Positions 10,249-37,497 of a stretch of DNA of 55,361 nucleotides are shown here, one piece after another. Made by a program: the position numbers and the translations under genes. This DNA is from an uncultured Candidatus Saccharibacteria bacterium (lineage in GTDB: Bacteria; Patescibacteriota; Andersenbacteria; UBA10190; CAIZMI01), in contig CAZVRG010000001.1 in the NCBI GenBank assembly GCA_964630025.1, positions 1-55,361 of the forward strand, written 5' to 3'. The notes beneath the pieces were generated by a model that worked only from the letters and a program-made list of their open reading frames with translations, was not told where the DNA came from and did no database searches. The number at the start of each line of letters is the position of its first letter. Positions within the stretch are counted from its first letter, which is position 1.

Positions 10249-12761
10249 ACACTCTGCACGAACCGCCTTCGTGGCGACCGTGGATCCCCGTGGTGGGAGG
10301 AATGGTGCTCCTGTGCGTCGCAGTTGTATACGTCTTGCTCCCAACATCGCGCGAGGTGTTGCGTACAACCGCCCCGCACACGCCCAGTGATGTCGAGCGT
10401 TTCGGGGGTGCGCGCAGCCTCGGCCAGAGTTTCATTGCGCCTGCAGACCGCCTCGCGGAAATCCGCCTGTTCCTGCAAACACCTGTGCCGCGGGACGCAT
10501 TTCCCATGCTCTTTCACCTTCGCCATGGCCGGTATGCAACAACAGATGTGCGTACCGTTACGGTGACTGCCAATGATATCGATATGGAGGGGGTCGTGCG
10601 CATCCGTTTCGCTCCCGTGCAGAAAAGCGGCGGACGCACGTACGTTTTTCTTCTCGACGCCGGTCGCGCTCCGTGGAAACGGCTCACAGCGTATCGCCAA
10701 ATTGACGGCACGATTTATGCCCAGGGACAGTTCTTTTCTGGCAACACCACGCAGGCGGGTATCGGGGATCTTGAGTTTGCCGCGATTGTCCGCGAACCGC
10801 GCATCCACGGCTTTTGGCACGCGCACCTCCGCCCCTTTCTTGATCAATTGCAAGGCCGTGTCCATACCCCTACAGAACAGCGGTATAGTGCAACGCCGCG
10901 GTTCTCCCGCGCGCTCGGGGTCGGGTGTCTCGCGATGATTGCGGTTCTGGCGTTGCTCTCTGTGCTCCGGCGCACGGGAACACCACGCATCTCGACAGTG
11001 CTCGCTCTGCTTGTTGTCGCGCACATGCTTCTTCATGCCCCGTTTTTGCTTCGCTACCCGGGCGTGAATGATGAGGGCTCCTACCTCATGGACATCCAGA
11101 ATATCCGTGCCGGCTATTGGCCATTTCGCGACACGCTCACCAAGGGGCCGCTATTCCTGGTGCTTCTTGCGCCGGTCGCACTCTTTTTTTCACACACGCT
11201 TCTTCCCGCGCGGATGATGGTCGCCGGCGTATCCGGCATCGAAGTGCTTCTTCTGTACATGCTGGGTCGGAGGTTTGGCGGACAGACTGTCGGGCTTCTT
11301 GCAGCCGCGCTGTGGGCGCTGTCCCCCGTCACCGTCGCACAAACGTCCCAGTTGTTTCTCCAGCCATTTTCGTTGCCGCTGGTGACACTCGCGTTGCTTC
11401 TCGCATTTCCGCATTCTGCATCTCCTGCTCCGCAGGGCACACAGCGCGCCCCGACGCATGCGCGGACTGCTCTCGGCGCGGGCATACTTCTTGCGCTGGC
11501 ATATCTCGTCCGGGCGTCATCCCTGGCCTTCGTCCCGCCAGTACTCCTCCTCGTAGTGACACAGCAGGATATGCGCGCCGGCATGCGCCGCGCACTCATG
11601 GTGCTTGCCGGCATGGCCGGAACATTCCTGCTTGTTGGCCTGCCAGCCCTCGCGCTTCTCGGATATGATCGCACCGCGGTGCTGTTTAACGTAGAGGCAT
11701 TTATCATCGGACACGCGCGAAGCGGGGGAGAAAGTGCAGCCGCAGCGTTTACCCTGCTTCCGCCATGGGAAATACTTGAACGCTTTAACGCGCATGGCGC
11801 GGTGCTCTTCCGTCTCGGCATGCCTCTCGTACTTTTGTGGCTGGCCGCGATTGCACGCACACTCACAACATTCCTTCGCCTGCCGGATAGGCTCAGCGTT
11901 ATTGGGTTTCTTGGTTTCAGTCTTCCGATTTTGCGTCTGGTGTACGCAGCAAACTTTACGCTCGCGGGGGAGCTCGCAAACTTTGGTCCCTCGTTCAAAG
12001 TACTCATGACCGTACTCACACTCCTTATCGTTGTTCTGTTGTGGTCATCTCCTTCACGCAGCCGTCTTTCTCGACGTCATGCTGGGAGGACACTCATCCT
12101 TCTGCTTGGAACATGGGTATCGCTTGCGGTGCTCTATATGTTCTTCGGGCGGTTCCGGCAGCAATACCATGCGGAGTTTCTCCCGCTCTACGTTACGGGA
12201 GGCGCGCTCTTTCTTGCAGAAACTCTCCCCATCATCAACGGGGACAGCATACGCGGACTGGTACAAACCTGGTGGCGATCTGGAACAGGCGTTCTCTGTG
12301 GGGTCGTTGTCGCGGCTGCGCTGTTCCTCTCATTTATTCCAAGTCGGGAACAGCCGCACACCGGCTCTATCCCACATCAGACTGCACGCGAGGTTGCAAC
12401 GATCCTCCGCGCGCACTCCGCACTGGGAGAAGAAATCCTCACGGCGCAAGGACTCTTCACATTCTATGCGGATCGTTTTCTGCCGTTCGGTGCTTCTCAC
12501 CCGGGATGGTACCTGGAAGAACGCGTCGGAACGGTGCCGACCGAACTTCGACGGCTCTTCCTCCCGGACAAAGAAGTGCTGCGACGCGCGATGCGCGAAA
12601 AACCGATCCGACTCGTGGCCATCGACCGTCGAACGCGCGAAGTCTATTTCAATTACGACCCCGAAATGCAGGCGCTCTTGAAATCCGAGTATCACCTTCT
12701 CGAGACCGTTCCGAGTCCGTACGAAGAGGATCCGGTGGAGATCTGGATCAAAAATGACTAA
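10245..12761 (+). CDS. GT-C membrane glycosyltransferase, ArnT/PMT-like (tandem paralog B)
   Basis: 838 aa. Its start overlaps the stop of the upstream gene (ATGA at 10245-10248). Motifs: NDEGSYLMDIQNI, QYHAEFLPLY, PIRLVAIDRRTREVYFNYDPEM. It is colinear with 7852..10248. Confidence 0.75.
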   Translation: MNTLHEPPSWRPWIPVVGGMVLLCVAVVYVLLPTSREVLRTTAPHTPSDVERFGGARSLGQSFIAPADRLAEIRLFLQTPVPRDAFPMLFHLRHGRYATTDVRTVTVTANDIDMEGVVRIRFAPVQKSGGRTYVFLLDAGRAPWKRLTAYRQIDGTIYAQGQFFSGNTTQAGIGDLEFAAIVREPRIHGFWHAHLRPFLDQLQGRVHTPTEQRYSATPRFSRALGVGCLAMIAVLALLSVLRRTGTPRISTVLALLVVAHMLLHAPFLLRYPGVNDEGSYLMDIQNIRAGYWPFRDTLTKGPLFLVLLAPVALFFSHTLLPARMMVAGVSGIEVLLLYMLGRRFGGQTVGLLAAALWALSPVTVAQTSQLFLQPFSLPLVTLALLLAFPHSASPAPQGTQRAPTHARTALGAGILLALAYLVRASSLAFVPPVLLLVVTQQDMRAGMRRALMVLAGMAGTFLLVGLPALALLGYDRTAVLFNVEAFIIGHARSGGESAAAAFTLLPPWEILERFNAHGAVLFRLGMPLVLLWLAAIARTLTTFLRLPDRLSVIGFLGFSLPILRLVYAANFTLAGELANFGPSFKVLMTVLTLLIVVLLWSSPSRSRLSRRHAGRTLILLLGTWVSLAVLYMFFGRFRQQYHAEFLPLYVTGGALFLAETLPIINGDSIRGLVQTWWRSGTGVLCGVVVAAALFLSFIPSREQPHTGSIPHQTAREVATILRAHSALGEEILTAQGLFTFYADRFLPFGASHPGWYLEERVGTVPTELRRLFLPDKEVLRRAMREKPIRLVAIDRRTREVYFNYDPEMQALLKSEYHLLETVPSPYEEDPVEIWIKND

Positions 12762-15682: not shown

Positions 15683-17277
15683 CGACTGCGGAGTGCTCGG
15701 ACGTCGTAGAGTTCAATCCGCGGGCCTGCGCTTTTCCATGGTTGCGGTTCAATAAAGAACACACGAGCGCCACGGGAACGAACCTCGTCATAGAACGCGC
15801 GATACGATGCCGTCATCTCCGGATAGAGCCGCATCGAGGTGGACTCGTAATATCGATCAACAAGCCGTGAGTCGAGCACGATGTAGTCAACACCTTGGTT
15901 CAACCATTCCGCAAGCGGTTTCGCTCGATGATCGGCGATTCTCCGATCATCCCGTCCACCGATATTCGCGTATTCCTCACGGAGAAGGAGCACAGTGTGT
16001 CGCGTGCTGCGTGGATTCAGAAAGACAAGCGGCCCGTGTTGCAGCACGGTTGCTCCGGATGGAATATGTTCCTCCGCCCATGCGACTGCTGTCGGCAAGG
16101 TTGCTTCTCCGGCATACGCACGGTCAAATGCGCCGACATTCCAGAGCGCCCCGCCCACGCCAACAAGGGCGAGACCAATTGCGGTGCCTCGGGCAACGGC
16201 GCGTGCACGCGGAAGAAGTGCTGGGGCATACACCACGCCATACGCCGCCGCGAGTGCAAGAAGCGGCGTCAGTGGGAGAAAGCGCTTTACCGCGTGCATG
16301 CGCACATACGCAGCCATGACAATATAGAGGACGAACAGAACACCACCGAGAAGGACAACGGCGCGATAATCGCGACGCCACGCCGCAACGATAACACCAC
16401 CCACCGCAAGGAGAAAAACCGCCAACGGCATTTCCCACACGAAACCGGATACCGTAAATGACAATCCCCAATCAGGAGATTGTGTGAGCAGCGGCCAGAG
16501 CAGATCGGAACTTGTGTATCCCAGATCGCCACCCGCCGCACGAAGGGAAAGTCCGTGATAGATTGCTCGTGCTTCCTGCCGCTCGATAAGTTTCCATGGA
16601 TTTGTCAGCGCAAAGGTGAGCGGAATCATGAACAACCCGACAATAAACGCTGGACGCAGGAGCGTTCGCCACCAGTGCGACTGACGCAATGCCCACCCTG
16701 CGTGCGCAAAGACAAGAGCAATACCGACCATGATGCCGTAATACTGGCTTGCAGCCGCGAGGCCTGTCAGCACGCCGGTCGTGACATACCATCGTCGTGT
16801 TCCCTTCTCCCACAAAAGAAACGCCGCTGCGACAGTGGCAAGCATGAAGAATGCGGCAAGCGGATCAACGTGTGCGTAATGCGCGTACTTCACGGCGAGT
16901 GGAGAAACAGCCGCAAAGAGCCCTCCAAGAAGACCGAGCGCCCAACCGCCGATATGCCGACCGAGCCAGATGGTGAGTGCAACGGTGAGCACACCAATGA
17001 TGACTGTTGTGATGCGCGCGACGGTCGTTGGATCCCATGCATCCTTTGGAACGATCTGCCCAACCACCGAAAAGATGCCGCCGTGAAGGTAATAGCCAAG
17101 ATGGGGATACCGAGCGCCACTGGGTGCGAGTGGACGGTCCGTGTCTCGCACACGAAGACCCGCCGCCGGACCGACAAGCTTGTTCTCGTCTGTCGGCAGA
17201 TGATGCGTAACGCCAACAAGCCGCGTCAGCAACGCAAGCGCAAGGATGCCTCCTGCCACGATCGTCTGCCGGCGCAT
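15679..17277 (-). CDS. GT-C membrane glycosyltransferase, ArnT/PMT-like
   Basis: 532 aa. It has an N-terminal helix followed by the loop motif TDENKLVG, then more than 10 TM helices and a soluble C-terminal domain. Its start overlaps the stop of the upstream oxygenase ORF by 1 nt (TGATG). Confidence 0.72.
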   Translation of the reverse strand: MRRQTIVAGGILALALLTRLVGVTHHLPTDENKLVGPAAGLRVRDTDRPLAPSGARYPHLGYYLHGGIFSVVGQIVPKDAWDPTTVARITTVIIGVLTVALTIWLGRHIGGWALGLLGGLFAAVSPLAVKYAHYAHVDPLAAFFMLATVAAAFLLWEKGTRRWYVTTGVLTGLAAASQYYGIMVGIALVFAHAGWALRQSHWWRTLLRPAFIVGLFMIPLTFALTNPWKLIERQEARAIYHGLSLRAAGGDLGYTSSDLLWPLLTQSPDWGLSFTVSGFVWEMPLAVFLLAVGGVIVAAWRRDYRAVVLLGGVLFVLYIVMAAYVRMHAVKRFLPLTPLLALAAAYGVVYAPALLPRARAVARGTAIGLALVGVGGALWNVGAFDRAYAGEATLPTAVAWAEEHIPSGATVLQHGPLVFLNPRSTRHTVLLLREEYANIGGRDDRRIADHRAKPLAEWLNQGVDYIVLDSRLVDRYYESTSMRLYPEMTASYRAFYDEVRSRGARVFFIEPQPWKSAGPRIELYDVRALRSR

Positions 17278-17882
17278 CAGTCTTCGAACGTGAATTTCTT
17301 TAACGCATTGACATTCACTTCTTTCAGCCGGGAAAGCGGAAGTTTGGTGAATGTAAGCTCGTCATCAAAGACACGATCAGCAATGTTCGATGGGAGCCCG
17401 TAAAAATCCTTGAAACCGAGACGCAACATCTTGTGCCGGCGGAGTTTCAACGGAAGGTCTTCCTGCCATACCTGTTCATTCCACTTCGGAATCATAAATG
17501 ACAGGAGCGGTGCAAGAATACGTTTCCACCCCATAAGAAAGAAACGGTAGTTCATGGTGATACGACAATGATCATGTCGATCTTCCTCAATACGAATCGT
17601 TGTGAGTACTGGAACGCCAAAGAGTCCAACGTTCACTGCTTTGATGACATCCGGCGAGTGCTGAATCATCACGTTGAGACTGTGTGACTTCAGAAATGAG
17701 AACACCGGCAAGCGATAGGTCAACAGCAGGGCAGCCATAAAATCATTCTCATAGATAATCTTCGCGTCGGTATAATTGGAGTGCACAACAACAAGATGTT
17801 CATGATCCCAGTAATTCCATAAGACCGCCGCTCGACCGGCGTCGAGCTCTCGGGTATACGTTCTTTCAACGACGTGCGTCAT
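17277..17882 (-). CDS. non-heme iron catalytic domain of a Rieske-type oxygenase (VanA/PaO-like), encoded as a separate ORF
   Basis: 201 aa. WNYWDHEHLVVVH matches the mononuclear-iron motif D-x2-H-x4-H of Rieske oxygenase alpha subunits. The size fits the C-terminal catalytic domain of class IA oxygenases. It overlaps the Rieske ORF by 17 nt. Confidence 0.6.
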   Translation of the reverse strand: MTHVVERTYTRELDAGRAAVLWNYWDHEHLVVVHSNYTDAKIIYENDFMAALLLTYRLPVFSFLKSHSLNVMIQHSPDVIKAVNVGLFGVPVLTTIRIEEDRHDHCRITMNYRFFLMGWKRILAPLLSFMIPKWNEQVWQEDLPLKLRRHKMLRLGFKDFYGLPSNIADRVFDDELTFTKLPLSRLKEVNVNALKKFTFED

Positions 17883-18225
17883 CGGGAAGAGGAAGAATAA
17901 TCTGATGATCCTCGATCACAAATTGGTAGTGACGTAACTGTCGCCCCGCAAGCGAGAATGTTTGGCAGGCGCCACTCTTGATATCGAATTCCCATGCGTG
18001 CCAACGACAGCGAAAACATTTCGTCTGCCAATCCACGTCGAATGCACCACCCATGTGGAGACACACAGAAGAGGTCACAAGTATTTCTCCATTGAGAGAA
18101 AGCGCGGTGATTTCGTCACGGAACGCGTCGACCCACTTCGTGATCTTTTTCTGTTCTTGAAGTTCCGCAAGCGTGCAAAAAGGAATGCGCGTTGCGGCCG
18201 TTGTGTTGTCGCTGCCGCCCTCCAT
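17866..18225 (-). CDS. Rieske [2Fe-2S] domain protein
   Basis: 119 aa counted from the internal ATG at 18225. CLHMGG (CxH) is followed, 15 residues after the His, by CRWH (CxxH), which is the canonical Rieske ligand spacing. The longer track ORF up to 18531 overlaps the upstream GT2 and was rejected. Confidence 0.8.
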   Translation of the reverse strand: MEGGSDNTTAATRIPFCTLAELQEQKKITKWVDAFRDEITALSLNGEILVTSSVCLHMGGAFDVDWQTKCFRCRWHAWEFDIKSGACQTFSLAGRQLRHYQFVIEDHQIILPLPDDARR

Positions 18226-18230
18226 GGTAT

Positions 18231-19097
18231 TTACCCCCGACTTCTTACGATCAGGTCGGCAAGCAACCCCATAAGCCCAATTTGAATGCCGACAACAATC
18301 AAGAGGATGCTCGCATCGGAGATGTTCTGCTCGAAGAGCAACGTGCGCGCCAGATTCGCCATACCGAGGATCAGAAAGATCGCGCTTGGCACCATGAAGA
18401 ACCGTAGCGGGCGGAAATACGTGATGATGCGCACCACCAGTGTGAGAAAGTTTGGAAATTCCTGAAACAGCCCGCGGCCAAGCGTGATGGTGGATGTTCC
18501 CAGCCGTGGCGCATACGCAATCGGCACCCACCGGACCCCGAGCTTATTCGTGAGTGCGGCGAGCGTGATCGTCGTCGTGAATGAAAACCCGTCCGGCAAG
18601 AGATGGAAAAATTGTTCGACCAACCCGCGGCGCATAAGACGCATGCCCGAATTCAAATCCGGAATCCGCCGACCGACAAGAAAGGCCGCAAGCGTTCCGA
18701 CAATCGCCTTGCCGGGACGGCGAAGAAGAGGAAAGGCCGCGGCCTTTCCAGAGCGCACCCCAACAACCATTTCAACACCTTCCGTGAGGTGATCGAGAAG
18801 ACGTGGAACATCCTCTGTCGGATATGTTCCGTCAGCATCAATGATGCCAAGGATATCCCCTTTCGCCGTACGCACGCCCGTCTTCAACGCTGCACCATAC
18901 CCGCGATTTTCTGCATGATGCACCACCGCGATCTCGGTATGGCGACGGAGAATCTCCGGCGTCGCATCGGTGGAACCATCATTTACGACGACGATTTCCG
19001 ACGGCATCGAAAGCTGGCCGCGCATGCGGAGAAGGCCCGCGAGGGTCTTTTCAATACCCGCGGCCTCGTTATAGACCGGCACGATCATACTCAGCAT
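18231..19097 (-). CDS. GT2 polyprenyl-phosphate glycosyltransferase with C-terminal TM helices (GtrB/ArnC/CsbB-like)
   Basis: Motifs: SMIVPVYNEAAGI, VVNDGSTDAT, IDADGTYP. Two C-terminal hydrophobic helices (FFMVPSAIFLILG, ILLIVVGIQIGLMGLLADLIV) are typical of GtrB/ArnC-type enzymes. Confidence 0.85.
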   Translation of the reverse strand: MLSMIVPVYNEAAGIEKTLAGLLRMRGQLSMPSEIVVVNDGSTDATPEILRRHTEIAVVHHAENRGYGAALKTGVRTAKGDILGIIDADGTYPTEDVPRLLDHLTEGVEMVVGVRSGKAAAFPLLRRPGKAIVGTLAAFLVGRRIPDLNSGMRLMRRGLVEQFFHLLPDGFSFTTTITLAALTNKLGVRWVPIAYAPRLGTSTITLGRGLFQEFPNFLTLVVRIITYFRPLRFFMVPSAIFLILGMANLARTLLFEQNISDASILLIVVGIQIGLMGLLADLIVRSRG

Positions 19098-20110: not shown

Positions 20111-20246
20111 TGCATCGTTCCCGATCGCTCCCATACGGGTGACTGTGCGTCGTGGTCGGAAGATCTTCCTCTTCTCATGAAGAAGGGGGGTGCTCCGATC
20201 GAGGAGGTGCGATGCCGCATGCGCAGTGGCACGATATACTGACATC

Positions 20247-31862: not shown

Positions 31863-32864
31863 ATGAACTCGGAAACGCCCCCTTTCAACAATTCGTCGTC
31901 TTCTTCAGGAACACGCTCCGCAACGATCGCGCGTTTGAGCGGCTGGGCAGAGCGCCGCGGACAGCTGAAGGGCATCGCCCTTATCGCCATCACGCTCGTC
32001 GTATTCTGGATTCTTTTCCGCCGTATTGATGTGGGGGTAGTGTTGGAAACACTCTCGGTTGTTCCTGCCTGGGCTTGGTTTGTCTCTCTCCTGTTCACGT
32101 TGTCGTTCCCCATCCTCTCGGCACTGCGCTGGCACTACACGCTACGCATGATCGGCCATCATATTCCATTCATGCGTTGTCTAAAAATCATTCTGGGGAC
32201 GTCACCCATCAGTGCGATTTCTCCATCGAAAGCCGGAGATTTTCTTCGCGCGGTAAGCCTCCGTGGAGAAGTCAGTGTTCTCGAAGTCGGAGGAACGGTG
32301 CTCGCGGAGCGTGCGCTGGATGTCCTCGTGCTCGCCGGACTCGCGTTCCTCGGCGGTGTGCTGATCGGACATACGCTCATTACCCGTTTCGCGGCAGCGA
32401 TTATTGCCATTGGGGTTGTCGGCCTACTGGTGCTTCCTCTCCTCGTTGCGTCTATCCCGAAACCCGCGGTACGTGAAAAACTCGAACGGCTCATTCGCGT
32501 TCTGCGCATGCTTCGCCAACAGCCCGGCATCGCGCTGGCCGTCGTATTCTTCACCATCTTGAATTGGCTGGCATCCATCATACAAACGCATGTTCTTCTT
32601 CTCGCGGTAGGAGCGCATCCGCCCTTTTGGCTTACGGTCGCAACGCTGCCGATCGCCATTTTCGTCGGTCTTCTTCCCGTCACGCTGGGCGGCATGGGAA
32701 CACGGGACGCGGCGCTCGTGACACTGCTGAGTTCAGCGGCAACCGCGCCACAGGCTCTCGCCGTCGGCTTGCTCTATTCGTTCTTCGGCTACTGGCTCCT
32801 CGCGATTCTCGGCCTCCCGTTTATGAGCAGCGCACTTTTCAGAAATCATAGCCAACGTTCTTAA
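31863..32864 (+). CDS. flippase-like membrane protein (lysylphosphatidylglycerol-synthase TM-region / UPF0104 family)
   Basis: 333 aa with about 8 TM helices. The motif region is ILSALRWHYTLRMIG ... ISPSKAGDFLRA ... LLPVTLGGMGTRDAA. This family commonly accompanies GT2 enzymes. Confidence 0.65.
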   Translation: MNSETPPFNNSSSSSGTRSATIARLSGWAERRGQLKGIALIAITLVVFWILFRRIDVGVVLETLSVVPAWAWFVSLLFTLSFPILSALRWHYTLRMIGHHIPFMRCLKIILGTSPISAISPSKAGDFLRAVSLRGEVSVLEVGGTVLAERALDVLVLAGLAFLGGVLIGHTLITRFAAAIIAIGVVGLLVLPLLVASIPKPAVREKLERLIRVLRMLRQQPGIALAVVFFTILNWLASIIQTHVLLLAVGAHPPFWLTVATLPIAIFVGLLPVTLGGMGTRDAALVTLLSSAATAPQALAVGLLYSFFGYWLLAILGLPFMSSALFRNHSQRS

Positions 32865-32914
32865 GCGATCTGGACCGTTGGGCCGCACCCTACTCGAAGG
32901 CTCTTCGGCTTGTA

Positions 32915-33103
32915 CTACGCTTCTTCTTTATCCGCGCTTTCTACCTGGTCTTTTAACTTCTTTATTTCTTCTCTGTTCTCGCTGAGTTTTTTTATCTCCT
33001 CTCTTACTAGTTTTTCCGACACACTCAACGGCTCACCCACCTGAGGGGGTTTAATGTGCCTGTCGTCTCTCTTTTCCAGCTGCGCTGAGGAGATTTTATA
33101 CAT
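32915..33103 (-). CDS. small charged coiled-coil protein (hypothetical)
   Basis: 62 aa and K/E-rich (REEIKKLSENREEIKKLKDQVE). Its start is 4 nt downstream of the protease stop. It shares the low-GC composition of that gene. Confidence 0.4.
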   Translation of the reverse strand: MYKISSAQLEKRDDRHIKPPQVGEPLSVSEKLVREEIKKLSENREEIKKLKDQVESADKEEA

Positions 33104-33107
33104 GAAA

Positions 33108-34028
33108 TCAAATAAATTTAATCAACTTCCCCCGGTCCGGGCCAATGTGCTGCTTAAACTCTTTCCAGAGATCGTCCCAATAGTCTAGTTTCTCGGCATC
33201 ATCAACTATAAAGTACCAGTCGTCCCGCAATTCATCTCTCCTTATCGCAAACGCGTGGTCTGGGTAGAGCCAGACAAAGCGTCTGATTATGATTTCCGAA
33301 ACTCTCCGACGAAGCCTTTCTTTGGATATGTATCGCAACATGTACTTATTTAGGAACTCCGTTCCATAAGTCTCTGCAATTGCCAGGAGTCTTTTTGCTT
33401 GATTATAAATTTTGACGTCCTCCTGACAGAGCATGGGTGAGATCAATTTCGAGATAGATTCACTTGCTACCATCAAACTTCTTTGGATCGGTAATCCGAA
33501 GTCCGCGTGTATTTCGTTGGCTAGGGCCTTTTGTCTCTCAATCGCAATGTCGATCATCCCGTCAATTGACTTCACTATATCTAGAGCGGATATCCTAGCT
33601 GTTTCATCGCCTGGATGTGTCATAGGTTTATCAAGAGGACCTACTTCAGAGATGGGACCCATAATTAATTTGTTTGCGCCGAAGCACATCAATGTTCCCG
33701 AACTCTTGGCTTCTTGGGGAATCGCTATTGTTATTTCTTCGTACTTCGTTCTTAAGATATCCATGATTTTCACGGCGGAGTAGATATTGCCACCACTTGT
33801 ATCGAGCAGTATTAGGAGTTTCTTTAGCGAGTTTTTCATTTCGCGCAGAAGCTCGTAAACAGTTATCTCGTCTTCTGGTTGTATACTCTGTAAGAAGATT
33901 CCGTCTTTATCCTTTGGGTAGAGCATTAAAAGCACATCGCTTTCTTTAAGCAACTTCTGGATAGGGAGTACTTTTTCCTCTGGTTGAACCGGAGTTGTAT
34001 CTGATTTTTTCTCCTGTATCTCTTCCAT
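33108..34028 (-). CDS. Clp-fold serine protease, SDH (serine dehydrogenase proteinase) family-like, with a helical C-terminal domain
   Basis: 306 aa. LLILLDTSGGNIYSAVKIMDILR ... IPQEAKSSGTLMCFGANKLIMGPISEVGPLDKP follows the ClpP/SppA/SDH pattern (TxGG ... A-x-S-x-G-T ... LGP-D-P). G+C is 42 per 100 nt (33301-33400) against 55-59 in the flanks. Confidence 0.65.
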   Translation of the reverse strand: MEEIQEKKSDTTPVQPEEKVLPIQKLLKESDVLLMLYPKDKDGIFLQSIQPEDEITVYELLREMKNSLKKLLILLDTSGGNIYSAVKIMDILRTKYEEITIAIPQEAKSSGTLMCFGANKLIMGPISEVGPLDKPMTHPGDETARISALDIVKSIDGMIDIAIERQKALANEIHADFGLPIQRSLMVASESISKLISPMLCQEDVKIYNQAKRLLAIAETYGTEFLNKYMLRYISKERLRRRVSEIIIRRFVWLYPDHAFAIRRDELRDDWYFIVDDAEKLDYWDDLWKEFKQHIGPDRGKLIKFI

Positions 34029-34034
34029 ATGACT

Positions 34035-34071
34035 TTCCTTTTGAAGTATACGCTTCCCATGCAGAACTCAA
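34035..34071 (-). promoter_or_regulatory. possible sigma70-like promoter and Shine-Dalgarno site in front of the protease gene
   Basis: On the minus strand: TTGAGT (34071-34066), a 15 nt spacer, then TATACT (34050-34045), then AAGGAA (34040-35) 6 nt before the ATG at 34028. The spacer is shorter than optimal and the call rests on the sequence pattern only. Confidence 0.3.
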
Positions 34072-34122
34072 ATGAGAGCGTCAATAGGCTCGGGGCACTT
34101 GCCGAAAATAGTCGCCGTAGTT

Positions 34123-34980
34123 TTACTTCTCGAAGCGTGCAAACTTCACGCTGCGGAAACTGACGCGACGGAATCCTGTGTTCTCGGCGATCCGACGCAT
34201 CGCCGTTTCGCTGTAAATGCTCACGTGCGCTTCGGGTTCCCGGAGGTAGAACCACGATCCCCCGTCGTTCTGATAATCGGGATCTTCCAAGCGCCGCGTT
34301 TGCACAAGAAGCACGCCGCCGGGCCGCAGCAGATCGGAAAGTGCCTGAAAGGTCTCGATGACATTCGTGATGTGCTCATGCGTTTCGATGGAAAAAATGC
34401 CGTCAAACGTTCCGGCGGGGAGCCCCGACTCGAGAAGCGGGATACGGAGAATATGCGGGCTTTCCGTGGGACTGAATGGGTCCAGACCAATCGCATCAAA
34501 ACCTTCTTTTCGAAGTTCCGATACGATTGTTCCGTGCCCGCATCCGAAGTCCATCAGGCGATGAAACTGCCGCCGCGCTCTCGCGTGCGACCACTGGCGA
34601 TACAAGAAAATCTTGCTCAATGCTTCATGTGCCTGGCGAGACCCCCACGCGATCGGCGACGACATGAGCTCGAGCATTTCCCACCCCTTCGCGCGCATAT
34701 CGACAGGATCACCTTCGGGCCACCGGTGTTCCCGAATTTCCTCATTGACAGAGGTGTGTAATGTCGGAGAATGCGCATGATCTTCCCAATAAAAATTCTG
34801 AAGAAAGTCGCATGCACCGCAATGCCAATAGATAATCCCCTGATTTTTGTGCCGCGGGGTCACCGGACCCGCACAGATTTTACAGTGTCGCGTCGTGTCT
34901 CTTTGTGCTGCACTCGCGTCAGAGACGACAGCGTGTTCCCGAACAAAGGACGGTTCGTGCATCGGACGAGTATACTGCAT
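34123..34980 (-). CDS. class I SAM-dependent methyltransferase with an N-terminal zinc ribbon
   Basis: Motifs: CKICAG ... HCGACDF (Cys4), LMDFGCGHGT (motif I), FDGIFSIETHEHI, LRPGGVLLV. The ATG is at 34980, and an upstream GTG at 35004 is also possible. Confidence 0.75.
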   Translation of the reverse strand: MQYTRPMHEPSFVREHAVVSDASAAQRDTTRHCKICAGPVTPRHKNQGIIYWHCGACDFLQNFYWEDHAHSPTLHTSVNEEIREHRWPEGDPVDMRAKGWEMLELMSSPIAWGSRQAHEALSKIFLYRQWSHARARRQFHRLMDFGCGHGTIVSELRKEGFDAIGLDPFSPTESPHILRIPLLESGLPAGTFDGIFSIETHEHITNVIETFQALSDLLRPGGVLLVQTRRLEDPDYQNDGGSWFYLREPEAHVSIYSETAMRRIAENTGFRRVSFRSVKFARFEK

Positions 34981-35059
34981 CGTTCGGACGTTGTCTTGGG
35001 GCACCGTACCAAGACCTCGCCGCGCGGAACCCCAATCGCACTTGTGCTAGCGTAGGGAT

Positions 35060-37348
35060 ATGGAGAAGAACATGCGCATTCGGTTCTCCATCGCCGTTGG
35101 CGTCGCATGTCTTGGCGTGCTGTTCATTCCCACCGACGCCGTTCGCGAGTCCAACGGACCAAAAGAGGAAGCGCAGTATATCCGCCGTCTGTACGAGGAT
35201 CATACAGTCGGACAAACGCTCGACAGCATGCATCCCGTGCATGCCATGCACATTCTCGTTCGCAGCGAGCAACCACAGGAGTCAACAATCATCGCCACAG
35301 ACGAAACGGAACGCGAGCGGGGACGCGTAACGACGCCCGTGACTCCGCAGGACACGTGGATCCGCTTCGATTTTTCTCCACCCCTGTCGCCGGGGAAACA
35401 GGCAATCACATTTCGCACGCTTCCGGACGTTCCGAAGGAACGTTCAGTCCTCCTGCGGTACCAGAGTGATTCCCGATTTTATGCACACGGATACATGATC
35501 GTTGATGGAGAGCCCTCCTACGGCGATCTTGCGTTTCGCGCGATTGAGCGCCTCCCGTTCTGGCGGAATGTGCTCCTGTGGGGGAACATCACGCCGGACA
35601 GCGCCATACGCGGGGGAAAGCGTATCAGCGCCGGTCTTGTCGTCGGCGGCGTACTGATGATCGCCGCGCGGACGATACGGACGACGCGGAGACCCCGGCT
35701 CGCGATCACACTCTTTCTTCTCCTGATCGCGGCTGCTGCGATCATCATCCGTCTTCCCGTTGCGTGGACGATTGAAGGCGTCTACGGGGGAGATGCCTTC
35801 AATTACCTTTCCAAGACGAATGCGCTTCTGCAGGGAGAGGATTTCTTCGCCGCCGACCCGCGAAAAGGGCCGCTCTACTCCCTCTTGCTGATCCTTGGGA
35901 TGTTCACCAGCGATCCGCTTGCCTGGTCGCGGCTTGTCGGCATTGGAGCGGCGGCCGGCGCCATTGCCCTTCTGCCATTGGTTGCGCGTCGCTTCTCACT
36001 CTCCTGGGAGATGGCGCTCGGTGCCGCCGGCCTCTTGGCAGTGAACCAGGACTTCATCTGGGAATCACCCAACGGCCTCGCCAATACGCTTTTTGCCGTC
36101 CTTATTGTGGCCGCAACCCTCGCGTATCTGAACGCCAACGACCGACGCTGGCAGTGGGCGCTCGCCGTGCTGCTTGGCATGACCTTTCTCACGCGGTATG
36201 AGGGGGGATTGCTGTCGGCGGTGTATCTGCCGGCATTGTGGATCCGCGAGCGGCTATCCTGGAAACGGGCGATACTGCTCGGCGCGACCACGGTCGCCAT
36301 CATGGCAATTCCGCAGCTCTCACTCCTTTGGTCGGGAACTCCGGGCATCCGCACGGCTACCGACGTACTCAACGACGGGGGATTATCTCTCGCCCACTCC
36401 GTTCGGGACTACCAAAATAATGCGAACCGTTTCCGTGAGTTTTCCGCGGCGGTATGGATATTCCCAGGAGAGAAGAGTCTCGTTGTACCCGTCATCGTGG
36501 GTGGTCTTCTGATTGGCGGCGTCCTGACGGGAATGCGGCGGCGTCTGATGGACGCACATGTGCTCCTCGGGCCGGCGCTCGCGGTGCTCTCGCTTGTCGT
36601 GTTGTGCATCCTCGTTCTTGGGAAATCTTCACGTCTGCGTGAGTATCTTTCGGCAGTGCCGTGGCTGCTGATTGGCATTGGCATCACTCCCTGGGTCGCC
36701 ACCAGAGTTATCGATGCGCTTGCTGTCTGGGGAGTAGTCGTGAGTCAGATCGCGATCGTCACGCTCATCCTGCCAAAACCCCGCTATTACCTTCACCTCA
36801 TTCCACTCCTTGCGCTCGGCATGGCGTTCGGGGTTCAGCACCTTGCGCAATGGAGAAACAGCTGGTATCCCCGTGCCGTTGCCGCACTGACGATCGGGAT
36901 ACTGACCAGTGTCTTCTACGTGGACGGACAGAAGACACTTGAAGGGCGCATCGAGAAGTACAACAAGCAGGCCCAGCATGTGTATGTCATGATGCAGGCG
37001 GTCAAAGATCTTCGCCGCCAGTCTCAACCCGCAGGATTCCGCACACCAGACGAACCGCCTATTGTCGTGTACCTCCCCACGGGACGTCGTTTCTTCTTCA
37101 CGGATACGGAGGAGAGTGGCGTTGGCGAACGCGAACTGCAATGGATACAAGAGAACAACGTGTGGTATGTCGTGGAGCGCAACGAAGGAAACGTCTGGCA
37201 GAGTGTTCGGGAGCACCCGGATCTCTTTGAGCACCCGCGCATCTTCGTGAGTACGTTTGGGAACGCGCGCGTTTCTGTCTACGGCGTTCATCGCGATCGC
37301 GTGCAGGCATTTTTCACCGCACGAGAAGAGCCGTCCGGGGCATTGTAG
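35060..37348 (+). CDS. GT-C membrane glycosyltransferase, ArnT/PMT-like, with an N-terminal extracytoplasmic module
   Basis: 762 aa. It has an anchor helix (IAVGVACLGVLFIP), the first-loop motif GDAFNYLSKTNALLQGEDFF, many TM helices and a soluble C-terminal domain. Confidence 0.72.
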   Translation: MEKNMRIRFSIAVGVACLGVLFIPTDAVRESNGPKEEAQYIRRLYEDHTVGQTLDSMHPVHAMHILVRSEQPQESTIIATDETERERGRVTTPVTPQDTWIRFDFSPPLSPGKQAITFRTLPDVPKERSVLLRYQSDSRFYAHGYMIVDGEPSYGDLAFRAIERLPFWRNVLLWGNITPDSAIRGGKRISAGLVVGGVLMIAARTIRTTRRPRLAITLFLLLIAAAAIIIRLPVAWTIEGVYGGDAFNYLSKTNALLQGEDFFAADPRKGPLYSLLLILGMFTSDPLAWSRLVGIGAAAGAIALLPLVARRFSLSWEMALGAAGLLAVNQDFIWESPNGLANTLFAVLIVAATLAYLNANDRRWQWALAVLLGMTFLTRYEGGLLSAVYLPALWIRERLSWKRAILLGATTVAIMAIPQLSLLWSGTPGIRTATDVLNDGGLSLAHSVRDYQNNANRFREFSAAVWIFPGEKSLVVPVIVGGLLIGGVLTGMRRRLMDAHVLLGPALAVLSLVVLCILVLGKSSRLREYLSAVPWLLIGIGITPWVATRVIDALAVWGVVVSQIAIVTLILPKPRYYLHLIPLLALGMAFGVQHLAQWRNSWYPRAVAALTIGILTSVFYVDGQKTLEGRIEKYNKQAQHVYVMMQAVKDLRRQSQPAGFRTPDEPPIVVYLPTGRRFFFTDTEESGVGERELQWIQENNVWYVVERNEGNVWQSVREHPDLFEHPRIFVSTFGNARVSVYGVHRDRVQAFFTAREEPSGAL

Positions 37349-37497
37349 ATTCCCGTTGTCGGTGTACCCTTTCCCCTTGCGGATAATGGGAATTCTCCGT
37401 ATGATTCTGCGCGTGTCCGAGCGCACTGTCCGGCAACAGACTTTCGTTCCGCAACGAGTGGACGTCTGCGAGCGCTGCGTATTCGCGCACTGATTTC

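Follow-up and report, generated by a model that had tools for sequence, protein, structure and literature searches.

A two-gene cassette for an SDH-type Clp-fold serine protease with a small helical partner protein, inserted in the glycan locus of a Parcubacteria-like bacterium: a candidate conflict module

Positions 1 to 55,361 of contig CAZVRG010000001.1 (assembly GCA_964630025.1) were analysed, a stretch of 55,361 nucleotides (nt) referred to below as the window. Between two intact host genes it carries an islet of two minus-strand genes, one for a 306-amino-acid (aa) Clp-fold serine protease (33108..34028) and one for a 62-aa helical partner (32915..33103). We conclude that this pair is a self-contained accessory cassette, acquired by horizontal transfer into a spacer of 15-21 nt between convergent genes of a glycan-synthesis locus, and propose that it may act as a conflict-type module. 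Taken as a whole, this explanation (acquired cassette, SDH-type protease, conflict-type function) has in our estimate a probability of about 0.6. Its parts differ in strength. Acquisition and protease identity are jointly held with high confidence, a function in conflict is put at a little under even odds, and the particular role of the partner is more tentative still. The host is itself a member of the candidate phyla radiation (CPR)/Patescibacteria, Parcubacteria-like and with an unusually high G+C (GC) content. This assignment is based on the protein of the left flank, whose relatives show 71-79% identity and include a single named one, from a 'Parcubacteria group bacterium'.

A sequence-only reading of the window had described a drop in GC content matching two minus-strand open reading frames (ORFs) at 34028-33108 and 33103-32915, and had counted 42 G+C in 33301-33400 against 55 in 32401-32500 and 59 in 34201-34300. 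The counts were exact, both ORFs exist and the break in composition falls at the gene boundaries. The sliding-window GC and tetranucleotide analyses which that reading had proposed both returned the islet as the top outlier of the contig. In 300-nt windows the GC content, 0.55-0.63 on either side, was down to 0.41-0.44 from about 32950 to 34150. Taken together, the two ORFs (32915-34028, 1114 nt) had a GC content of 0.429, the minimum of the contig and 5 standard deviations (SD) under the mean of 1114-nt windows across it (mean 0.571, SD 0.027). Its tetranucleotide distance of 0.505 was likewise the largest on the contig (median 0.24). The GC content at third codon positions (GC3) was 0.48 in the protease gene, 0.52 in that of the partner and 0.57-0.68 in 19 host genes. 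The composition of the islet is thus atypical of the host replicon. The insert is no shorter than 1114 nt and no longer than 1258 nt (32865-34122). The larger figure takes in, on the left, a junction spacer of 50 nt (32865..32914), of which the first 25 nt or so are GC-rich and host-like and the remainder runs into the 3' end of the cassette, and on the right, upstream of the protease gene, a minus-strand region of 94 nt (34029..34122) with a Shine-Dalgarno sequence (AAGGA) and a weak promoter-like pair.

Both flanking genes belong to the host and lie outside the cassette. On the left, a plus-strand gene (31863..32864) encodes a flippase-like membrane protein of the LPG_synthase_TM family (Pfam PF03706, 129 bits); on the right, upstream of the cassette, a minus-strand gene (34123..35004) encodes a class I S-adenosylmethionine-dependent methyltransferase (Methyltransf_23, Pfam PF13489, 92.9 bits). 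The two genes are convergent and intact around the insert. L088 and L089, the closest relatives, have them only 21 and 15 nt apart (spacers at 11012-11032 and 11009-11023, respectively), with identities to the window of 78-79% for the flippase-like protein and 79-82% for the methyltransferase. Nucleotide alignments of the window with these relatives break at 32843 and restart at 34122-34124. L088 and L089 therefore represent the empty site. Other relatives carry different cargo at the same spot. L090 and L091 possess a pair of genes for 254-aa and 75-aa proteins (L090 10955-12353) without any Pfam or PHROG match, and this relative occurs in the same samples as the window organism. L116 (567-1215) possesses a single ORF for a C-terminally membrane-anchored protein of 211 aa, with a GC content of 0.44 between flanks of 0.58-0.60. 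Close relatives thus lack the islet at the orthologous site, which is empty in two of them and holds unrelated genes in others, and the finding that might have spoken against acquisition, namely the same two genes at this position in related genomes, was not made. The spacer between the flippase and methyltransferase genes is a recurrent landing site, or insertion hotspot, in this parcubacterial lineage.

An abrupt change of composition that coincides with gene boundaries would also be expected if a low-GC fragment of another organism had been joined into the contig during assembly. We regard such a chimera as extremely improbable. Two independent assemblies reproduce the junctions: L086 (Logan assembly, SRR8863434) equals window positions 32141-33661 at 100% identity and crosses the left junction, and L087 (ENA ERZ27284378) corresponds to 33683-35520 with 1 mismatch in 1838 nt (99.95%) and crosses the right one, so that each junction is covered by a match of 1.5-1.8 kb. 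The insert moreover lies cleanly within the intergenic spacer and leaves both host genes intact. It is on such short contigs of other assemblies that the 62-aa partner and the methyltransferase were each found in identical form. No sign was seen of the misassembly that the sequence-only reading had wished to exclude.

Judged by transitive sequence similarity and predicted fold, the product of the larger gene belongs to the SDH branch of the Clp fold as a divergent member. It contains all the motifs picked out earlier, DTSGG, AKSSGTLMCFGANKLIMGP and GPLDKP. In an AlphaFold2 (AF2) model built on 88 homologues (mean predicted local distance difference test score, pLDDT, 90; predicted template modelling score 0.83), a disordered segment (residues 1-16) is followed by an alpha/beta core (approximately 20-147), four long helices (148-254), which correspond to the helical domain previously suspected after the core, and a small C-terminal alpha/beta unit. 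The candidate catalytic residues, all in conserved columns, are Ser109 (codon 33704-33702, minus strand), Asp133 (33632-33630) and His258 (33257-33255); Gly79-Gly80 (33794-33789, minus strand) are of the oxyanion type. His258 is carried by the C-terminal segment, and the four-helix domain is inserted between Asp133 and His258. Among 61 representatives with identities down to 20-30%, G79, S109, G130, P131, D133, S147 and H258 were invariant; the ClpP-like His138, Asp257 and the SppA-like Lys (K108) were variable. Ser, Asp and His are thus conserved in the linear order of SDH proteinases, and a proper alignment leaves the catalytic set intact. A sequence profile search of the PDB returned the stomatin-specific protease 1510-N as the best match and aligned Ser109 with its catalytic Ser97; the chain of the S97A mutant has Ala in this column.

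Direct family assignments are less clear-cut. The match to Pfam PF01972 (SDH_protease) scored 27.7 bits, under the cut-off of 31.3, and extended over residues 56-136 only. The match to NCBIfam NF047768, the equivalog for SDH family Clp fold serine proteinases, reached 40.5 bits against a threshold of 250 (residues 47-151). Membership of PF01972 is consequently reached by transitivity: the window protein itself is sub-threshold, and members of the wider family are above it. Ten longer family members, found with the profile of the window protein, all passed PF01972 at 34-65 bits without showing any additional Pfam domain, and relatives from a Burkholderia phage and from Methylovorus scored 37.7 and 33.7 bits. 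An exhaustive profile search found 7371 representative clusters at E <= 1e-3, 4203 at E <= 1e-10 and 660 at E <= 1e-30, mostly for proteins of about 300 aa matched over both the core and the helical domain. The fold comparisons agree with this. Foldseek searches of the PDB found SppA, ClpP and 1510-N with a probability of 1.00, matched in the core only (query TM just 0.25-0.39, helical domain unmatched), and the top fold matches in BFVD were giant-virus proteins annotated as 'serine dehydrogenase proteinase', covering the whole architecture (TM 0.48-0.62, 257-321 columns). With the SDH proteinases (PF01972, formerly DUF114; NF047768) the window protein shares the Clp/crotonase-type core, the nucleophile Ser within G-x-A-x-S-[AS]-[GA]-T, the order Ser-Asp-His, the helical domain after the core and full-length fold matches. 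It differs in falling under both family cut-offs, with only residues 56-136 aligning to the Pfam model, and in the obligate small helical partner, which is specific to its clade. The identification as an SDH-type Clp-fold serine protease made by the sequence-only reading therefore holds, resting on the conserved Ser-Asp-His set and on the fold.

The protein lies outside the NCBIfam equivalog and outside the ClpP, SppA and NfeD families. SppA (S49) and ClpP (S14) have the overall core fold in common with it, but use Ser-Lys and Ser-His-Asp, respectively, where the window protease has Ser-Asp-His, and their models score far under the cut-offs. CLP_protease PF00574 gave 17.7 bits (cut-off 20.2) and PRK00277 gave 12.6 (249); the ClpP-equivalent H138 is not invariant in the wider family. 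TIGR00706 gave 16.2 (155) and SohB 12.2 (259), and the hydrophobic segment of SppA/SohB is missing: the maximum Kyte-Doolittle value over 19 residues was 1.12, and the protease is predicted to be soluble. Signal peptides and membrane segments are missing from both the protease and the partner. Compared with five other copies, the protease gene showed a nonsynonymous divergence (dN) of about 0.2 and saturated synonymous sites, indicating that it is under strong purifying selection.

The small ORF which had been placed 4 nt downstream of the protease gene exists, separated from it by TTTC. Its product was predicted from the single sequence by AF2 to consist of one long amphipathic helix (residues 28-61) with a less ordered N-terminus; the mean pLDDT of 10-residue blocks was 84-98 for residues 21-60. 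The protein is near neutral (pI 5.85, 14 K+R, 15 D+E). Homologous proteins of the clade share the motif P-x-S-x-[ST]-E-K-L-V-R-E-E-[IV]-x-K-L-x-E-N-x-E-E-I-K-K-L-K-E-Q and have a variable N-terminal tail; the window partner carries the conserved motif as P-x-S-x-[ST]-E-K-L-V-R-E-E-I-K-K-L-x-E-N-x-E-E-I-K-K-L-K. A canonically spaced ribosome-binding site is missing from the partner gene, whose translation is probably coupled to that of the protease gene. A word-indexed homologue search with the 62-aa sequence found only the query itself. Homologues were sought with a locally built hidden Markov model (HMM) in 14,540 ORFs (>=30 aa) of all fetched loci; it matched solely ORFs located directly downstream of clade protease genes and nothing, even at E <= 10, in the loci of distant protease relatives. 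The 62-aa protein was recorded only from a Logan assembly and the protease and both flanking proteins came from NCBI sources; the deposited record therefore probably lacks an annotation of the partner gene.

Close homologues of the protease (about 100, with 50-73% identity) come, as far as they are named, from metagenome-assembled genomes of the Patescibacteria type. Twelve close loci (55-72% identity) were found among the one-genome-per-species GTDB representatives, and together with L095 these gave 13 other distinct loci of the clade. They are labelled as Parcubacteria, Paceibacterota, Nomurabacteria, Saccharibacteria, Berkelbacteria or Peribacteria, a few having other or unspecific bin labels. 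The distribution is sporadic and similarity does not track taxonomy. In all 13 a partner ORF of 60-77 aa lies directly downstream of the protease gene, at distances between an 11-nt overlap and a 15-nt gap in the 12 that were measured. In an all-against-all comparison of ORFs from 12 genome-scan and lookup loci and the window region, protease and partner were the only genes common to independent loci. Of 13 loci measured, the window included, 12 had a pair with a lower GC content than the surrounding DNA; in several genomes the pair resides in a low-GC island of 3-5 kb, and the dip spans only about 1.5 kb in L009 and in the window. Protease and partner are thus strictly co-inherited in a clade known only from CPR-type genomes, and they move as a unit between unrelated contexts. 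This, together with the empty site and the confirmed junctions, bears out the view that the islet is a two-gene cassette gained by horizontal transfer. Patescibacteria are reported to exchange genes mostly within the phylum (PMC12455944), which fits the distribution of the pair.

The neighbours of the pair were surveyed in 13 loci by means of annotated contexts and of Pfam and PADLOC scans of 131 ORFs within 5 kb. Mobile-element or defence-type genes were present in about 8 of them, so that the search for the pair in other genomes suggested by the sequence-only reading did lead to some loci beside defence or mobile genes. Three independent CPR genomes have the pair abutting three different restriction-modification families: in L009 (9085-9879) an MvaI/BcnI restriction endonuclease gene ends 7 nt before the protease gene, in L006 (7953-9934) a 263-aa ORF and a C5-methylase gene precede it, ending 9 nt before it, and in L013 (11140-12702) a convergent Eco57I-type methylase gene abuts the pair. 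Integrative functions are found in L008 (rolling-circle Rep and a large serine recombinase), L014 (large serine recombinase and HTH_36) and L097 (tyrosine integrase, DUF4238 and NYN, with a SEC-C-motif protein upstream). In the Saccharibacteria locus L096 a Fic gene is present, the protease gene starts 3 nt after secA and secDF is nearby; L007 contains a weak HEPN match. A Methyltransf_23 gene also occurs near the pair in L001, but a link between such methyltransferases and the cassette was rejected, as the two methyltransferases have no detectable mutual similarity and that of the window is orthologous to the one in insert-free relatives.

Distant relatives of the protease (25-30% identity over core and helical domain) occupy accessory positions of temperate elements. 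In Klebsiella phage ST13-OXA48phi12.4 (L092, 4718-5915) such a protease, annotated as 'SppA protein', lies beside XRE/ImmA immunity genes. It is preceded by a 71-aa ORF, without Pfam or PHROG match, which overlaps its start; the gene order is thus opposite to that of the CPR clade, with the small gene in front. A relative in a P2-like Burkholderia phage adjoins the integrase gene at the genome end. In pMsip02 of Methylovorus glucosotrophus (L094, NC_012972.1) an SDH-like protease gene is located between those for Zot and an integrase. This 9.8-kb 'plasmid' encodes Zot, DUF2523, a small major capsid protein and the integrase, a gene set which makes it look like an inovirus-type replicon.

What might such a pair do? 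The favoured explanation is that the protease would be the effector of a conflict-type accessory module and that the helical protein would be dedicated to it as a regulator or substrate, in the form of an inhibitor comparable to an antitoxin or of a bait whose binding or cleavage controls the protease. The module would then serve phage defence, exclusion or the maintenance of the element carrying it. This proposal draws on the sporadic, mobile distribution of the pair beside restriction-modification genes and integrative elements, which is typical of conflict modules. There are precedents for action on an adjacent product. The best-studied ATP-independent relatives with the Clp fold have targets that are encoded next to, or inside, the protease gene: stomatin is cleaved by 1510-N, and gpC of phage lambda acts on Nu3. 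SppA processes its own C-terminus, as the title of PDB entry 4kwb also indicates. An inhibitor or bait role for the partner is the more speculative component of the proposal. A still narrower version, in which the pair is a previously undescribed, Patescibacteria-specific two-component conflict system whose partner restrains or arms the protease, the latter being an abortive-infection or toxin-antitoxin-like effector, is somewhat doubtful.

Compared with toxin-antitoxin and abortive-infection modules and with protease-based defence systems such as IetAS and CalpL-CalpT-CalpS, the cassette is likewise a compact, tightly coupled and strictly co-inherited pair with a sporadic, mobile spread, often sited by restriction-modification genes or on integrative elements, and a protease is a plausible effector. 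As in type II toxin-antitoxin systems, the small genes of the pair are closely linked and inherited together. In contrast to these systems the pair contains no ATPase or sensor component, its small gene lies downstream of the large one, and neither a known toxin fold nor a recognisable antitoxin or DNA-binding fold is evident, the partner being a single helix.

Several observations weigh against the proposal. PADLOC-DB 2.0 models matched neither protein at E values up to 1, and no significant Pfam, NCBIfam or PHROG match was obtained for the partner, be it to a toxin-antitoxin family, a DNA-binding domain or a toxin fold. No experimental function of the PF01972-type family (SDH_sah, DUF114, serine dehydrogenase proteinase) was found in the literature. 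No neighbour family occurred in more than 2 of the 13 loci surveyed, and about 5 of these had housekeeping or hypothetical neighbours only. Neither a recombinase within the islet of the window nor significant flanking repeats were found, and the scan gave no convincing promoter for the window copy. The GC3 of this copy, 0.48, is the highest of all (0.21-0.375 in the others), and its closest sampled homologue is just 73% identical. The last two facts imply that the transfer was not recent or that the donor has not been sampled; the GC3 suggests a copy that is partially ameliorated or derived from a donor of intermediate GC content. It is a reasonable guess that insertion took place by recombination through the conserved flanks.

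The cassette could instead be of use to its host outside any conflict. According to this explanation, which we consider unlikely, it encodes an accessory protease together with an adaptor or substrate of its own; like a soluble counterpart of SppA or NfeD-stomatin, the pair would work in protein processing or quality control connected with secretion or the envelope, and it would have been acquired for its benefit to envelope or glycan biology. SppA and 1510-N are indeed the best matches of solved structure; the Saccharibacteria locus places the protease gene directly behind secA and close to secDF, a SEC-C-motif protein is encoded upstream in L097, and in the window the pair belongs to a locus for glycans and the envelope, where it follows a host methyltransferase gene of the same strand at a distance of 94 nt. 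A parallel is offered by the 1510-N/stomatin pair (PH1510/PH1511), in which the gene of an ATP-independent Clp-fold serine protease adjoins that of its substrate. However, 1510-N has a Ser-Lys dyad and is anchored in the membrane, whereas both proteins of the window lack membrane segments and signal peptides. The partner, a soluble 62-aa helix, has no SPFH/stomatin match, and the NfeD model PF25145 (NfeD1b_N) gave only 23.5 bits compared with a cut-off of 40. Nor would a role in envelope biology readily account for the sporadic distribution and the absence of the pair from the orthologous site of the closest relatives, for neighbours that differ at every locus, or for unrelated cargo at the same site in sister lineages.

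It is less probable again that the pair serves the mobile element rather than the cell, as the remnant of a larger integrative element whose protease degrades host immunity or repressor proteins in anti-defence or superinfection control. Such a role would suit the occurrence of the pair as cargo of elements with serine or tyrosine recombinases and rolling-circle Rep, its location inside 3-5-kb low-GC islands elsewhere, and the distant relatives adjoining immunity and integrase genes in temperate phages and in the inovirus-like replicon. But the pair has no element backbone in the window, nor in L009 apart from the restriction gene. No close member of the clade was found on 2.9 million IMG/VR viral contigs, and adjacency to restriction-modification genes is at least equally consistent with defence islands of the host. 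The phage remnant which the sequence-only reading had offered as an option is likewise disfavoured, and no known head-protease model matches the protein. A decayed head-morphogenesis module, consisting of a prohead protease and a small coiled-coil scaffold, finds a parallel in gpC and Nu3 of lambda, where a small charged helical protein is likewise encoded at or after the 3' end of a Clp-fold protease gene. Small K/E-rich helical proteins do resemble scaffolds, and weak matches to head maturation proteins exist (PHROG 2976, E 8.5e-4; NCBIfam NF045542, 26.2 bits against a cut-off of 120). Yet the best PHROG matches of the protease, 21683 (E 1e-26 to 7e-26) and 11747 (E 1e-23 to 6e-23), are families of unknown function and not head proteases, and no portal, capsid or terminase-type family was seen in the annotated contexts or among the best 25 of 136 neighbour families listed. 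The pair is conserved as a self-standing unit; it is intact in 14 distinct loci, under strong purifying selection, and has no close homologue on viral contigs. One distant relative even belongs to an inovirus-like replicon, and inoviruses are headless. We consider this origin very improbable.

CPR/Patescibacteria genomes are small. They have been reported to contain few recognised defence systems (PMC12366544, PMC12455944). Functional selections reported in 2025 recovered the 'Dallas' defence genes ldgA and ddgA, which are said to be almost exclusive to Patescibacteria (PMC12366544); it seems unlikely that the cassette is identical with ldgA/ddgA. We found no paper describing the protease-partner pair, and a literature search for anti-phage roles of ClpP-like or SppA proteins yielded nothing relevant. 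What is new is a subfamily of SDH proteases that is specific to one clade and has a partner, seen here in a well-documented insertion: a clean acquisition at a single site, with the empty site, alternative cargos and both junctions on record and with the co-inherited pair as the unit. In addition, the intergenic spacer emerges as a hotspot at which a parcubacterial glycan locus has captured foreign genes repeatedly. Being small (1.2 kb) and easily synthesised, the cassette is a concrete candidate for functional testing, and it offers a handle on a branch of proteases that comprises hundreds of sequence clusters across bacteria, archaea, temperate phages and giant viruses. Should it prove to be a conflict system, this would be the first biological role for the SDH protease family (660 representative clusters at E <= 1e-30) and the very few immune or addiction modules known from the CPR would gain a new member.

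The expression signals of the cassette agree only in part with what had been proposed. The protease gene does have a strong ribosome-binding site, AAGGA at 34040-34036, 7 nt before the ATG. Such a site is missing from the three host genes named for comparison (26598, 37498 and 45386) and from most others checked; a recognisable Shine-Dalgarno sequence is thus absent from most host genes and present at the acquired protease gene. The suggestion of an own promoter, TTGAGT (34071-34066) and TATACT (34050-34045), did not hold up. Its spacer of 15 nt misses the 16-18 nt required by the scan and the pair was not called; hits in the islet region were as frequent as expected from shuffled sequences, and an autonomous sigma-70 promoter is unsupported by the scan. 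The left spacer (32865-32914) contains a weak hairpin of 5 bp (minus-strand sequence CGAAG-AGC-CTTCG) without a T-run, and no terminator was called there. Because no convincing promoter or terminator was found, the cassette may be transcribed by read-through from the methyltransferase gene, which lies 94 nt upstream on the same strand.

The motif CTCGAAG, which had been noticed at both borders, is equally unremarkable. Its right-hand copy is located at 34129-34135, and not at 34117 as given earlier, and belongs to the final codons of the methyltransferase gene (F-E-K-stop), which are also conserved in relatives without the insert. The motif occurs 9 times on the contig (about 7 expected), and its best extension at the borders, a direct repeat matching in 9 of 10 positions, arises in 6.2% of random window pairs at equal spacing. 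CTCGAAG was therefore rejected as an att site or target-site duplication, the right copy being host coding sequence and the match at chance level.

The remainder of the window is a glycan and envelope locus with genes for GT2 and GT9 glycosyltransferases, C-methyltransferases, sugar dehydratases, a carbamoyltransferase and many YfhO/GT-C-like membrane proteins of 760-960 aa; no tRNA or Rfam match was found in it. At least 7 of these large membrane proteins are paralogous (e.g. those at 20190, 26598, 29357, 37498 and 45386) and have faint YfhO or no Pfam matches, and three C-methyltransferase paralogues lie at 2324, 13477 and 25287. A second, milder low-GC patch (0.46-0.50) at 17277-17882, and also at 17866-18531, comprises a 201-aa ORF beside a Rieske-like ORF and a GT2 gene. 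It was considered as a second islet and set aside: judged by length and position only, 17277-17882 is probably a host gene, with a product of equal length at the same position beside the Rieske and GT2 genes in L088. A further difference from the relatives concerns a gene of host-like GC content at 35060-37348, which encodes a 762-aa multi-pass membrane protein without Pfam match. It is missing from the syntenic L088 and L089, whose alignment skips from 34983 to 37489 of the window, so the glycan locus varies by insertion and deletion of whole genes beyond the islet.

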